Notes under the pieces: generated by a model
Database searches by the model: none
What the model saw: only the letters and a program-made list of their open reading frames with translations
What the model was told of the DNA's origin: nothing
Assembly: GCA_038858525.1 (NCBI GenBank)
Contig: JAWCFL010000017.1
Span: 8,502-40,501, forward strand
Source of the DNA: Candidatus Jordarchaeales archaeon
GTDB taxonomy: Archaea; Asgardarchaeota; Jordiarchaeia; Jordiarchaeales; Freyrarchaeaceae
Length of the DNA: 32,000 bases
Reading direction: 5' to 3'
Shown here: in pieces, positions 2,681 through 6,523 of the stretch
How the letters are laid out: each line of letters starts with the position of its first letter
Position numbering within the stretch: the first letter of the stretch is position 1
Position numbers and translations under genes: made by a program

Positions 2681-3841
2681 CTACCTTGAAAGCTCTTCTA
2701 TAGACTTTAAAAGGTCGTTTTTATGCCTCCTTAACTCCTGCAACTTCTCGGAGAACTCGCTTATGAAGTCCCTTATCCTCGTTATGGCGTCATCTATTAT
2801 TTTTAGCCTCTCATCGAGCTTCTCAGTTAGATTTCCTGTTTCGCCAAGTTTTAGAAGCGAAGACAGTTTGCCCTCAATAGCGCTTACTCTCCCCTCAAGG
2901 ACGGCGAGCCTTCCCTTAACGTCCTCTAGCGCCTCTTTAATTTCTGAGAAGCTCAGTTGCGGGGCTGGCGTAATGACCTCAGTAGCCCCCATTACTTCTT
3001 TCCTTACTTCTTCACTCACTTCGGCTTTCTCAGCTTCCACCTTTCCTTCCAACTTCAGGAGAACAGTCTCCTCCTCATGGCTAGGCCCCGTTAAACCGCT
3101 GATGTAACAGTCATAAACTTCAGCTATGGCCTCCGACATCTCTCTATTGTAAGGCTCGCCTCCTAAGCCTGAAAAAATACATGCCACATCATCATGATAC
3201 TTTAAACACCAAATCCCTCTTCCGCTTTTCTGCTCTAGGAAGAGCAGTAGTGAGGATGAGAAAAACGGGCTTTCGAAAAGATTCTGCACCGTTCTAACTA
3301 TCAAGTTTAACTCTTTCGGTAATGGCCCACCCGCCTCAAACGAGTCACGCGCCCATGCATATTCAAGGTCTTCGCTATCGATAAGCTTTCTAACCCAGTT
3401 CTCTAATCCCTCCACGACTATTCTGGTCCCACTAAACTCATAGGTTCTCTCGCTGAAACCAAGTAGCGAAAGAATGTTAGCCACAATCATCTTCGCCTCT
3501 CTCTCACGGGTCTTGAAAATACAAAGCCACTTCTCTCGCCCATAACCAACAACACACATTCTGCTTCCATTCAACTCCACAACTATAATGGCTAACAGGT
3601 CGCTTCGTAGGAGGGGTGAAAGAAAAACTTCGTTAGAAAACATCCTCAGAAACCTATGCGTCGCATCCATCACCTCGGGACTCAACACGTCGCCCCTAAA
3701 AAACCTGAGGAGTTGTGTTATGCTTCCTCCACTCTTAAGCGCCTCAGCCACTTCATTTATGACCGAAAGATCCGTGAAGAGGTAACCGCTGATCACACCC
3801 ACAGTAGAACCATACCACTTGTCAAGCCACTGCCTGAGCAT
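2681..3841 (-). CDS. Hypothetical protein with an internally duplicated alpha/beta unit and C-terminal coiled coil
   Basis: The ORF track starts at 3871, but ATG at 3841 has a strong GAGGTGA SD. Two similar segments (F.SP..LL..G..Y..CIF..RE) and heptads from about residue 307. Confidence 0.75.
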   Translation of the reverse strand: MLRQWLDKWYGSTVGVISGYLFTDLSVINEVAEALKSGGSITQLLRFFRGDVLSPEVMDATHRFLRMFSNEVFLSPLLRSDLLAIIVVELNGSRMCVVGYGREKWLCIFKTREREAKMIVANILSLLGFSERTYEFSGTRIVVEGLENWVRKLIDSEDLEYAWARDSFEAGGPLPKELNLIVRTVQNLFESPFFSSSLLLFLEQKSGRGIWCLKYHDDVACIFSGLGGEPYNREMSEAIAEVYDCYISGLTGPSHEEETVLLKLEGKVEAEKAEVSEEVRKEVMGATEVITPAPQLSFSEIKEALEDVKGRLAVLEGRVSAIEGKLSSLLKLGETGNLTEKLDERLKIIDDAITRIRDFISEFSEKLQELRRHKNDLLKSIEELSR

Positions 3842-3970
3842 TTCACCTCTCTTCAAGGAAACCCCCACCAAGACACTATATATTCAAACACTACTCTATC
3901 ATTAAGCCTAAATAACTCTTCTTCAAACAAAAAAAGTGGGAGCCGTATGCGCAGCGCTTTTCTTATCTGA

Positions 3971-4174: not shown

Positions 4175-4472
4175 TTAGACCACCTTCTTAGAAGGCCTGT
4201 TGCAAAATAAATATTCCACAATTATACTTATTTACTTTTTGGAAGAAAAGGAAATCACAATGAAAAACTGATAATTTACAATTGCTTAAAAAGAAATATT
4301 CCTAATTCCATCTCTTTTTTGTTTAAGCATTCGAAGACGAAATAAAGTAAAAGCCTAAGCCTCTAGTAACTCCCACAAAGCATCCTAACAGATTCCTAAA
4401 CTAAATTCTCAACAAACTAAAACCCTCTCAAACAAACCATTTTGCGGTTTTTATAGAGCTTCTTTCGTAATG

Positions 4473-4480
4473 TTTAAAAG
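4473..4480 (+). promoter_or_regulatory. TATA box of tRNA-Cys/sepCysE/pscS unit
   Basis: TTTAAAAG lies 27-34 nt upstream of tRNA G1 (4507), the typical archaeal spacing. Confidence 0.6.
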
Positions 4481-4521
4481 TTATTTTTTCATTTGAGTTG
4501 TTGAGAGCCGGGGTGGCCGAG

Positions 4522-4555
4522 AGCCTCCAGTCTGATTGAAATGAGGTGCCGGAAA
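4522..4555 (+). other. tRNA intron A at position 15/16 (34 nt), relaxed BHB
   Basis: Bulges AG^A (4520-22) and AA^C (4554-56). Central helix GCCG/CGGA (3 WC pairs + G.A). Intron-side helix GC/GC then CCUC/GAGG. Exon-side helix is not formed. Confidence 0.65.
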
Positions 4556-4562
4556 CGGTGAG

Positions 4563-4583
4563 TCCCCCTTCACGGGGCGCGAA
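4563..4583 (+). other. tRNA intron B at position 23/24 (21 nt), relaxed BHB
   Basis: Bulges AG^U (4561-63) and AA^G (4582-84). Central helix GGUG/CGCG (2 GC, 1 GU, 1 G.G). Intron-side helix CCCC/GGGG. Confidence 0.65.
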
Positions 4584-4597
4584 GCAGCGGACTGCAG

Positions 4598-4611
4598 TTT
4601 TATGAGCAGTT
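4598..4611 (+). other. tRNA intron C at canonical position 37/38 (14 nt)
   Basis: C32-C35 (CUGC) pairs with intron GCAG (4606-09). Bulges AG^U and UU^A. Removal restores the 7-nt anticodon loop CUGCAGA. Confidence 0.9.
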
Positions 4612-4633
4612 ATCCGCCATACCGGGGTTCAAA

Positions 4634-4651
4634 ACCTTTAATAGGTGAAAC
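4634..4651 (+). other. tRNA intron D at position 59/60 (18 nt), strict BHB
   Basis: T-stem as exon helix, central UUCA/UGAA, bulges AA^A and AC^U, intron helix CCU/AGG. Removal restores the T-loop UUCAAAU. Confidence 0.9.
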
Positions 4652-4684
4652 TCCCTGCCCCGGCTCCACTTCTTCTCCAACAGT

Positions 4685-5317
4685 GTGAGATGGTGCGTTA
4701 TGCCTCTTTCCCTTTCTTTGGATGCTGCCAGAAAGCTTTCCTCAACTATAGAAGCTCTTTTAACTGCTTGGTCTCTTGTCCGTGCGTCAGCACCTCGCTT
4801 AATCCTAAAGGAAAAAGAAGAAAGAGATTTTGTCGAGAAACTGTTACTGGCGCATCGCGCTCTCTCTGAGCTTTTATCTCTTCTCGGGCTCGACAAGCAA
4901 GAAAACGAGCTTATCAGTGCTCTTTCAGAACTAAATCCTAATGAAACATTACTCCTCGTCGTTCCCCCCTCATTGATGAGGCGCCTTGTGGGAGTCGGTA
5001 TTCCACATGAAAGAGTAATATCAATTGGAGGACCATTAAGCGCTGAAGACGCCAAGGCGTTAAATCCCCACCTTCCCGAGGAAGCTATGAAAGGTGTTGA
5101 AGCACGTTTAAAGAATTTTTGGAGAGAGCTTGAAAGAAAAATTAAAGGAGCACGTACAGTTCTTTTCATCCTGGAGAAAGCTGGCAAAGTTGACGAACTT
5201 ATAGCCAAGCGTGCCAGTATGCTTTCTGAAAAGTTTGGAGTCGATGTTAAAGTTGTCTACTTAACTAATCTTGATTCCTGCGTAGAAATTCTACCGCGTT
5301 TTTTCAGGAGGGAGTGA
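4685..5317 (+). CDS. SepCysE (DUF2100 family), SepRS-SepCysS scaffold / translation factor
   Basis: Segments APRLILKEKEERDF..L..LG and GGPLSAEDAKALNPHLPEEAMKGV match the recalled methanogen SepCysE pattern. Lies 3 bp upstream of pscS. True start may be the ATG near 4700. Confidence 0.8.
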   Translation: MRWCVMPLSLSLDAARKLSSTIEALLTAWSLVRASAPRLILKEKEERDFVEKLLLAHRALSELLSLLGLDKQENELISALSELNPNETLLLVVPPSLMRRLVGVGIPHERVISIGGPLSAEDAKALNPHLPEEAMKGVEARLKNFWRELERKIKGARTVLFILEKAGKVDELIAKRASMLSEKFGVDVKVVYLTNLDSCVEILPRFFRRE

Positions 5318-5320
5318 GAA

Positions 5321-6523
5321 GTGCCGCTTAGACCTGAACGCCTTTCGAAGTATCGCAACCTTACAAGGAGTACCGAGATTGAAGCGATAAATCTCAACCC
5401 AATTCAGAGTGGGGGACGTGCCGGAAACTACCCTGAAGTCGTCAAATCAGTACTGAACTTCATAGATGGATATAGCACGTGCGACTACTGCATTAAGGGT
5501 AGACTCGAGGAAATCGAGACGCCACCGCTATGTGACTTCCACGCTGACCTAGCAGAATTCATCGAAATGGATGAAGTCAGGCTTCTACCGGGATGCAGGC
5601 AGGCTCAGTTTGCTGCTTTTCACAGCCTAGCAAGCCCAGGAGACTACGTGGTCATAGATTCTCTAGCACATTACTCGACATATCTGGCTGCCGAGAGAGC
5701 TGGACTGAAAATAATTGAGGTGCCCAACAGTGGTTTCCCTTATTTTGAAGTGTCACCTGAGCTTTACGCCGAAAAAATAGAGGAAGCTAAACGCGTCACT
5801 AAAAAAACACCTGCATTGGTTTTCCTTACTCACGTTGACTACTCCTACGGTAACCTTGCGGATGCCGAGGCCATTGCAAAGGTCTCCCACGAGTATGACG
5901 TACCATTCATGTTAAACTGCGCGTACACTATTGGTAGAATGCCTGTATCCGGACGAAAATTGAAGGCTGACGTAGTAGTAGCCTCGCTCCATAAGTCTTT
6001 CGCGTCCCCTGCCCCCTCAGGAATACTTGCAGCTAATGGAGAGTACGCTGAGAAAATATTCAGAAAGTCAACGGTGAAGGGAGAGTGGAGCGGCAGAACT
6101 TTTCCAAACAAGGAGGTAGAACTTTTAGGATGCACGTTGCCCGGCTGCGTCGTTGTTGGAGTGATGGCGGCATTCCCCTACGTTGCTGAAAGAGTAGAGC
6201 GATGGAGTGAAGAGGTCGAGAAAGCCCGTTACTTCTCAAGCCAGCTGACGAAGATCGAAGGCGTCATTCAGCTTGGGCAGACCCCCCATAACCATGACCT
6301 CCTCCACTTTGAAAGCTCCTCGTTCTTCGAGGTGGCTCGCGCTCACCCTAGAAAGGGTTTCTTCCTCTATGACGAACTAAAAGCTAGAGGAGTCGTGGGC
6401 GTCCAGCCAGGCCTATCGAGGTCCTGGAAACTTTCAACATACGGACAAAGCTGGGAAAATGTTAAAAAAGCGGCTCAAGCATTCCTTGAAATAGCTGAAA
6501 AATACAATATCCCCGTCTCTTAA
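5321..6523 (+). CDS. pscS: O-phosphoseryl-tRNA:Cys-tRNA synthase (SepCysS)
   Basis: INLNPIQSGG, GYSTCDYC, AHYSTYLAAE, THVDYSYGNL, PLP lysine motif SLHKSFA, ELLGCT. Confidence 0.95.
   Translation: MPLRPERLSKYRNLTRSTEIEAINLNPIQSGGRAGNYPEVVKSVLNFIDGYSTCDYCIKGRLEEIETPPLCDFHADLAEFIEMDEVRLLPGCRQAQFAAFHSLASPGDYVVIDSLAHYSTYLAAERAGLKIIEVPNSGFPYFEVSPELYAEKIEEAKRVTKKTPALVFLTHVDYSYGNLADAEAIAKVSHEYDVPFMLNCAYTIGRMPVSGRKLKADVVVASLHKSFASPAPSGILAANGEYAEKIFRKSTVKGEWSGRTFPNKEVELLGCTLPGCVVVGVMAAFPYVAERVERWSEEVEKARYFSSQLTKIEGVIQLGQTPHNHDLLHFESSSFFEVARAHPRKGFFLYDELKARGVVGVQPGLSRSWKLSTYGQSWENVKKAAQAFLEIAEKYNIPVS

Follow-up and report, generated by a model that had tools for sequence, protein, structure and literature searches.

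A tRNA-Cys(GCA) gene with four predicted endonuclease-type introns and a 7-nt micro-exon in an Asgard archaeon

The window analysed here, a stretch of 32,000 nucleotides that is part of contig C17 of genome G000, contains at positions 4507-4668 of its plus strand a locus of 162 nt which we interpret as a single tRNA-Cys(GCA) gene with four endonuclease-type introns, located at positions 15/16, 23/24, 37/38 and 59/60 of the tRNA. Judging from the sequence of the locus and of its orthologues, we put the probability of this gene model at roughly 0.85; confidence in the exact boundaries within the D-arm is lower, that at 15/16 being a predicted one. The introns (87 nt) outweigh the exons (75 nt), and one of the exons is 7 nt long. 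With four introns the gene lies in the upper tail of a phenomenon that has already been described, and is not a first.

The host genome is archaeal, has a size of 2.09 Mb and a G+C content of 47%, and is 92.7% complete in 63 contigs. For comparison we used three genomes of the same genus (G001, G002 and G003), the one genome of the sister genus (G004), a genome of a more distant family (G016) and two congeners of the Freyrarchaeaceae (G006 and G009). The same-genus relative G003 is a Candidatus Jordarchaeum, which makes the host an Asgard archaeon of the Jordiarchaeaceae. Completeness of the four genus genomes (G000-G003) ranges between 73 and 95%, the latter value being that of G002, which is assembled in 8 contigs.

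Structure and conservation of the tRNA-Cys locus

The locus is read as five exons and four introns, distributed as follows:

4507-4668, plus strand: tRNA-Cys(GCA) gene, 162 nt, of which 87 nt are predicted to be removed as introns and 75 nt are exons
4507-4521, plus strand: exon 1, tRNA positions 1-15, 15 nt (acceptor 5′ strand, U8, G9, D-stem 5′ strand, A14, G15)
4522-4555, plus strand: intron 1 (15/16), 34 nt, relaxed BHB of the bulge-helix-loop type
4556-4562, plus strand: exon 2, the micro-exon CGGTGAG, tRNA positions 16-23, 7 nt (includes G18 and G19)
4563-4583, plus strand: intron 2 (23/24), 21 nt, relaxed BHB of the HBh′ type
4584-4597, plus strand: exon 3, tRNA positions 24-37, 14 nt (3′ half of the D-stem, 5′ half of the anticodon stem, anticodon GCA, G37)
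4598-4611, plus strand: intron 3 (canonical position 37/38), 14 nt, hBH motif
4612-4633, plus strand: exon 4, tRNA positions 38-59, 22 nt (3′ half of the anticodon stem, A47 and C48 in the variable loop, 5′ half of the T-stem, T-loop as far as A59)
4634-4651, plus strand: intron 4 (59/60), 18 nt, strict hBHBh′ motif
4652-4668, plus strand: exon 5, tRNA positions 60-76, 17 nt (3′ half of the T-stem, 3′ half of the acceptor stem, U73, CCA encoded at 4666-4668)

An earlier note on this DNA had assigned 87 of the 162 nt to four introns of 34, 21, 14 and 18 nt, and this segmentation matches the sequence exactly. When the exons are joined, ARAGORN reports a 75-nt tRNA-Cys(GCA), with U73, with CCA encoded in the gene and with an acceptor stem of 7 bp. 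The unspliced locus DNA is called neither by ARAGORN, with or without its intron mode, nor by Rfam (gathering, E ≤ 10), and the locus illustrates why standard tRNA finders report tRNA-Cys as missing in these genomes.

Orthologous tRNA-Cys loci were found in G001, G002 and G003 and in the sister genus (G004). Their alignment, which the earlier note had proposed as a check, upholds the gene model: in the three genus relatives the four insertions occupy the same sites and measure 33-40, 19-21, 13 and 18-22 nt. Among the four genus members the exons have 69 invariant columns out of 72 and the introns 36 out of 97, and all of the gap columns (14/14) fall inside introns. Invariant columns amount to 15/15 in exon 1, 6/7 in exon 2, 14/14 in exon 3, 20/22 in exon 4 and 14/14 in exon 5, counted up to U73. 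The micro-exon is conserved although both introns that flank it diverge, and CCA is encoded in every orthologue.

More compact versions of the gene are present outside the genus. The tRNA-Cys gene of G004 carries the 23/24 and 59/60 introns only, being devoid of those at 15/16 and 37/38, and that of G016 carries the canonical 37/38 intron only, without those at 15/16 and 23/24. The 23/24 intron is present in all five genomes of the family (G000-G004), and the 59/60 position is also occupied in G004 and in the Freyrarchaeaceae G006 and G009. The D-loop of G004 reads GCCGAG-TGGCGAG without interruption, TGGCGAG being the equivalent of the micro-exon. As these two pieces are contiguous there, the 34-nt block of the host genome is to be read as an insertion and the 7-nt CGGTGAG as an exon of the D-loop. 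In both orthologues without the 15/16 intron (G004 and G016) exon 1 is joined to the D-loop as GCCGAG-YGG, with G15, and the predicted product is colinear with these two genes wherever they are free of insertions. A single 62-nt intron extending from 15/16 through 23/24 was considered and rejected: no BHB forms, the product would have no D-loop, and the micro-exon is conserved.

A second tRNA-Cys was not found in the host genome by exon BLAST. In a whole-genome spliced-alignment scan of the same genome, with the mature tRNA-Cys as query, the locus scored 122 and the next best match 60. The other intact tRNA-Cys gene that, according to the earlier note, would have argued against its reading was thus not found by either search in this 92.7% complete assembly. 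A candidate second tRNA-Cys on contig C48 (score 66) was discarded, having neither a GCA anticodon nor acceptor pairing. A sequence-pattern scan of metagenome contigs returned 36 matches, including one true tRNA-Cys orthologue, identical to that of G003; in the pattern scan of genome contigs for the locus, chance matches in GC-rich bacteria predominated. Phylum-wide BLAST with the G016 tRNA-Cys as query gave mainly generic T-arms and no Freyrarchaeaceae locus. The Freyrarchaeaceae tRNA-Cys locus was located via SepCysS synteny.

Splice motifs and the D-arm boundaries

In the BHB register that we applied, a 4-bp central helix is formed from the four exon bases that precede the 5′ bulge, and each 3-nt bulge is cut behind its second base. 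The motif of intron 4 is a strict hBHBh′ in all five family genomes; its central helix UUCA/UGAA is paired at 4/4 positions, its outer helix is the T-stem (5 bp), and its inner helix comprises 3 bp with compensatory changes. The central helix of intron 3, CUGC/GCAG, is likewise paired at 4/4 positions, with the anticodon stem (5 bp) as the outer helix and a weak inner helix of 2 bp. For intron 2, the central helix is 3/4 in the host genome and 4/4 in G001, G002 and G004; its intron helix, of 4 bp, shows a compensatory C-G to U-A change, and the motif is HBh′ in the relatives. Intron 1 has a 5′ bulge AG|A and a central helix in which C11-C12-G13 pairs with CGG of the intron, 3/4 in all four genus members. 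Its intron helix GCAC/GUGC becomes ACAC/GUGU in G002, a compensatory change from G-C to A-U, and h′ comprises 2 bp in the host genome and at least 4 in the orthologues. Introns 1 and 2 have no exon-side helix. The geometry agrees with the description given in the earlier note, namely a strict motif at 59/60, a weak intron-side helix at 37/38 and relaxed motifs in the D-arm. Taking as flanking helix an exon-side h or an intron-side h′ with at least 2 contiguous pairs, all four introns have at least one.

When the proposed helices are followed across the orthologues, 96.8% of the cells pair, compared with 36-50% when the helix partners are slid by 1-3 columns. Two-sided changes occur in six helix pairs, a number reached by 1 of 500 shuffles; as the four genus members are close kin, these covariation counts derive from few independent events. 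Unconstrained folding with RNAfold and RNAalifold recovers the helix-bulge-helix of intron 1, the hBH motif of intron 3 and the hairpin of intron 2. The predicted gene model is supported by the motif-free comparison with the compact relatives, by covariation and by unconstrained folding.

The relaxed BHB class is permissive, as stated in a preprint on the Jordiarchaeaceae (10.64898/2026.10.13.758758). The claim that only the joining given above yields a proper D-stem stands once the orthologues are considered. It does not stand for the single sequence, for which ARAGORN, once the BHB rules are relaxed, also accepts many different joinings of the D-arm. An automated refinement of the boundaries (spliced alignment with G011 and G016, top BHB candidates within ±5 nt, ARAGORN) was also abandoned; it misplaced the D-arm boundaries and gave many D-arms which are valid for ARAGORN but are not conserved. 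As ARAGORN accepts such non-conserved D-arms it is not discriminating, and we relied on the orthologues instead.

The same four introns can be read with intron 1 cut two bases earlier on both sides, so that nucleotides 14-47 of the pre-tRNA would be excised and the mature tRNA would have A15 and not G15. This shifted register provides a 4/4 central helix between U8-G9-G10-C11 and GCCG of the intron in the four genus members, against 3/4 for the register adopted above. It leaves, however, no intron-side helix (one pair), whereas the adopted register has a conserved one that includes the G-C to A-U change, and it is the adopted register that unconstrained MFE and alignment folds select. A15 is also disfavoured by the orthologues without intron 1, which have G15 in GCCGAG-YGG; in addition, G15 would match C48 in a Levitt pair and counts among the identity elements listed for Cys (PMC9976931). 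On account of the covarying intron helix, of G15 in the intron-less relatives and of the fit with C48, we favour excision of intron 1 after G15 and regard the earlier cut as improbable.

Somewhat more improbable still is the reading that EndA does not excise one or both of the D-arm insertions, which would either stay as an enlarged D-loop or be removed otherwise, leaving two or three true BHB introns. Both motifs are relaxed, and the preprint mentioned above describes a substantial minority of D-arm insertions without canonical motif, sequences that tRNAscan-SE leaves in the 'mature' tRNA (10.64898/2026.10.13.758758). Retention would nevertheless place 21-55 nt of extra sequence in the D-arm of the sole tRNA-Cys, and the compact relatives have a D-arm that is functional without the insertions. 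Furthermore, the insertions evolve in the manner of introns, being poorly conserved and bearing indels, in contrast to the conserved 7 nt that separate them, and in G001, G002 and G004 the HBh′ motif of intron 2 is canonical, with 4/4 central pairs.

Cysteine pathway genes, splicing enzymes and proposed processing

The tRNA-Cys gene is accompanied by a promoter-like element and by two genes of the tRNA-dependent cysteine pathway:

4466-4480, plus strand: BRE/TATA-like element cgtaaTGTTTAAAAg, a putative promoter, TATA being centred about 31 nt upstream of the tRNA 5′ end
4685-5317, plus strand: SepCysE-like gene (DUF2100), its start 16 nt downstream of the tRNA; Pfam PF09873, E 4.9e-25
5321-6523, plus strand: SepCysS gene (Sep-tRNA:Cys-tRNA synthase); TIGR02539, 479 bits against a cut-off of 365; Pfam SepSecS/Aminotran_5

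The distance of the putative promoter element from the tRNA is the same in each of the five Jordiarchaeaceae loci, and the spacer around the element diverges. For the SepCysE-like product a match was obtained (E value 1.4e-5) with MJ1481, the SepCysE in the transsulfursome structures PDB 3wkr/5x6b/5x6c. The order tRNA-Cys, SepCysE, SepCysS, head to tail on one strand, is kept in G001-G004, G006 and G009. No oligo-T run is present between the tRNA-Cys and the SepCysE-like gene, so that co-transcription of the tRNA with SepCysE and SepCysS is possible; positions 4507-6523 may form one transcription unit, read from the promoter at 4466-4480. Upstream of the tRNA, the minus strand of the window contains ORFs of 245 aa (1935-2672) and 396 aa (2681-3871) without Pfam match, the second of which shows 63-81% identity in three genus relatives.

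That we are dealing with a tRNA-Cys pseudogene, decaying or unprocessed, whose functional counterpart lies in unassembled DNA is hardly credible: an assembly of 63 contigs and 92.7% completeness leaves room for such a counterpart, yet the exons are 96% invariant in four species while the introns and the adjacent SepCysE protein (54-72% identity) diverge, the promoter is conserved, SepCysE/SepCysS synteny is kept across the order, a DNA search of G002 (8 contigs, 95% complete) gave one match to the locus, and no other Cys-like locus was found in the host genome.

SepRS is encoded in the host genome on contig C11 and passes the curated cut-off with 512 bits. The predicted product carries G34-C35-A36, U73, G15, G37, A47 and A59, the Cys/SepRS identity set being the GCA anticodon, U73, G15, G37, A47 and A59 (PMC9976931). 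The earlier note had read the product as a SepRS substrate; the presence of this set, together with SepRS, SepCysS and a SepCysE homologue, supports that reading. No CysRS above the curated cut-off was found in G000-G003, a result that at 73-95% completeness is not proof of absence; one CysRS passing the cut-off is present in each of G004, of the sister genus, and G006, of the Freyrarchaeaceae. The genus may rely on SepRS/SepCysS alone. G006 contains in addition a second CysRS-like frame (C1:2176317-2177573, minus strand) that scores 324 bits, just below the cut-off, and contains a single in-frame TGA; a pseudogene, a selenoprotein or a sequencing error could each account for it.

With respect to splicing enzymes, the host genome encodes two PF01974 endonuclease paralogues, a catalytic EndA alpha (C3:81808-82389, minus strand) and a beta-like one (C43:5666-6262). 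The best match of EndA alpha is the alpha subunit of the A. pernix (alpha-beta)2 enzyme (3p1z_B, E 1.6e-48); the Tyr, His and Lys positions are kept, and the protein aligns gap-free across the loop region of the Aeropyrum pernix alpha. The second paralogue lacks the His and resembles a structural subunit. RtcB is also present (C1:35280-36587, 601 bits). The note had expected an endonuclease of broad specificity, alpha2beta2 or epsilon2: EndA alpha and a beta-like protein were found, and homology suggests the broad specificity.

For a functional tRNA-Cys gene with four introns we propose the following course of processing. A pre-tRNA of about 160 nt carrying the four introns would be transcribed from the conserved BRE/TATA promoter. 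Each intron would pair with the neighbouring exon to form a bulge-helix-bulge or bulge-helix-loop motif, and cleavage and ligation at the four sites would yield a 75-nt product already bearing CCA. The two D-arm introns would be removed in succession, which would keep the micro-exon from ever being free; such a sequential removal is likely, as very few base pairs would hold the micro-exon if both flanking introns were cut together. SepRS would charge the product with phosphoserine, and SepCysS and SepCysE, encoded directly downstream, would convert the phosphoserine to give Cys-tRNA.

As the genus apparently has no CysRS, all four splicing events would be needed for cysteine decoding, which, if CysRS is truly lacking, would hang on an obligatory and ordered four-step splicing in which the micro-exon is held by intron-exon helices only. 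Being apparently the sole route of cysteine decoding in the genus, this one would require each of the four cuts and ligations to work, and for that reason the gene should be a good test substrate both for the tolerance of (alpha-beta)2 endonucleases towards relaxed motifs and for a fixed splicing order in multi-intron pre-tRNAs.

Interrupted tRNA genes in the host genome and in other lineages

Rfam gives 8 tRNA matches in the host genome, 5 of them over the cut-off, compared with 32 and 40 in two other Asgard genomes, and ARAGORN in intron mode gives 11 tRNAs, several of which are doubtful. We performed a motif-free census in which 56 reference tRNAs from two relatives were aligned with splicing to the whole host genome. 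This approximate census located 34 tRNA loci, all of them with at least one insertion of at least 10 nt, the mean being 2.47 per gene; five loci have four insertions. One of these, a tRNA-Leu(CAG) gene on contig C11 (minus strand, start near 54130, span of 154 nt), appears to have four introns of 17, 15, 13 and 19 nt, all of them with 4/4 central helices, and the 90 nt predicted to remain after splicing make a good class II cloverleaf. The other census loci with four insertions resemble Ile (contig C6), Tyr (C3:78516) and Pro (C4:35924).

Four introns are found as well in the tRNA-Cys gene of G006 (L225:488-670), which is also upstream of SepCysE and SepCysS. They are BHB introns at 15/16, 32/33, 46/47 and 59/60, with lengths of 33, 15, 29 and 31 nt. 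The tRNA-Cys gene of its congener G009 (L224:3-153) has three BHB introns, none of them at 15/16. The sole tRNA-Cys intron position common across the order is 59/60. At 15/16, the introns of the Jordarchaeum genus and of G006 are unrelated, and the nearest relatives, G004 and G009, have no intron there. It is conceivable, if rather unlikely, that 15/16 is a recurrent insertion hot spot, in which case independent gains would point to a site-specific arrival of introns and not to random insertion followed by selection. If the gains at this same phosphodiester bond were independent, introns may be delivered, for example, by the EndA/RtcB reaction running backwards and a subsequent reverse transcription.

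The earlier note cited multi-intron tRNAs of the Thermoproteales with up to three introns, named no four-intron case, and implied that the gene was novel. Three introns were the known maximum for archaeal tRNA genes in a 2014 review (PMC4033280). The preprint on Jordiarchaeaceae, dated October 2026, reports about 2.0-2.4 intervening sequences per gene and a maximum of five in one gene (10.64898/2026.10.13.758758). More than three introns are consequently no longer unprecedented, and the implied novelty has to be given up. Many missed D-arm insertions and a two-subunit EndA are described in the same preprint (10.64898/2026.10.13.758758), and in Atabeyarchaeia and Freyarchaeia 92-95% of the tRNA genes are reported to contain introns (Valentin-Alvarado et al., 2024, PMC11291895).

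Our results coincide with these two studies (PMC11291895; 10.64898/2026.10.13.758758) in the lineage, in the interruption of nearly every tRNA gene (2.47 insertions per gene here against 2.0-2.4), in D-arm insertions that standard detectors miss, in BHB-type motifs and in the two-subunit EndA. Both studies are computational, and their main text contains no mention of the 7-nt micro-exon between two relaxed D-arm introns, of the link to SepCysE/SepCysS or of the apparent loss of CysRS in the genus (PMC11291895; 10.64898/2026.10.13.758758). The picture drawn by these Asgard studies of 2024 and 2026 is left unchanged by the tRNA-Cys locus.

When compared with the Thermoproteales, the gene described here belongs to another phylum and has four introns, the maximum there being three. 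Introns of the Thermoproteales are transposing sequence families, whereas the four introns of the tRNA-Cys gene are without paralogous copies in the host genome, in which just chance matches of 10-12 nt were found. Multi-intron tRNA genes of the Thermoproteales were reportedly described by Sugahara et al. in 2007-2009. In both systems a gene may carry several introns, located at many positions and having non-canonical BHB, hBH and HBh′ motifs, and the endonuclease, a predicted one in the present case, is of the (alpha-beta)2 type with a Crenarchaea-type alpha (PMC4033280); the EndA alpha of the host genome is most similar to the alpha subunits of A. pernix and P. aerophilum.

Ectopic BHB introns in the D-arm, at 37/38 and in the T-loop are shared with the nuclear tRNA genes of Cyanidioschyzon merolae (PMC3728597). 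In that organism, a eukaryote (red alga) in which some tRNA genes are permuted, there are up to three introns per gene, and RT-PCR showed that they are removed in an ordered, sequential manner (PMC3728597). Such an ordered removal is the model that we propose for the micro-exon, with the difference that splicing was demonstrated experimentally in C. merolae and is predicted from sequence here.

The clustering of tRNA-Cys with genes of the tRNA-dependent cysteine pathway has a parallel in the tRNA-Cys genes of SepCysS operons, such as the tRNA-Cys-SepCysSn-SepCysS-SepRS cluster of a Bathyarchaeota genome (Mukai et al., 2017, PMC5424206). The locus described here differs from them in its full-length SepCysE-like DUF2100 partner, in the location of SepRS elsewhere, on contig C11, and in the four introns of its tRNA gene.
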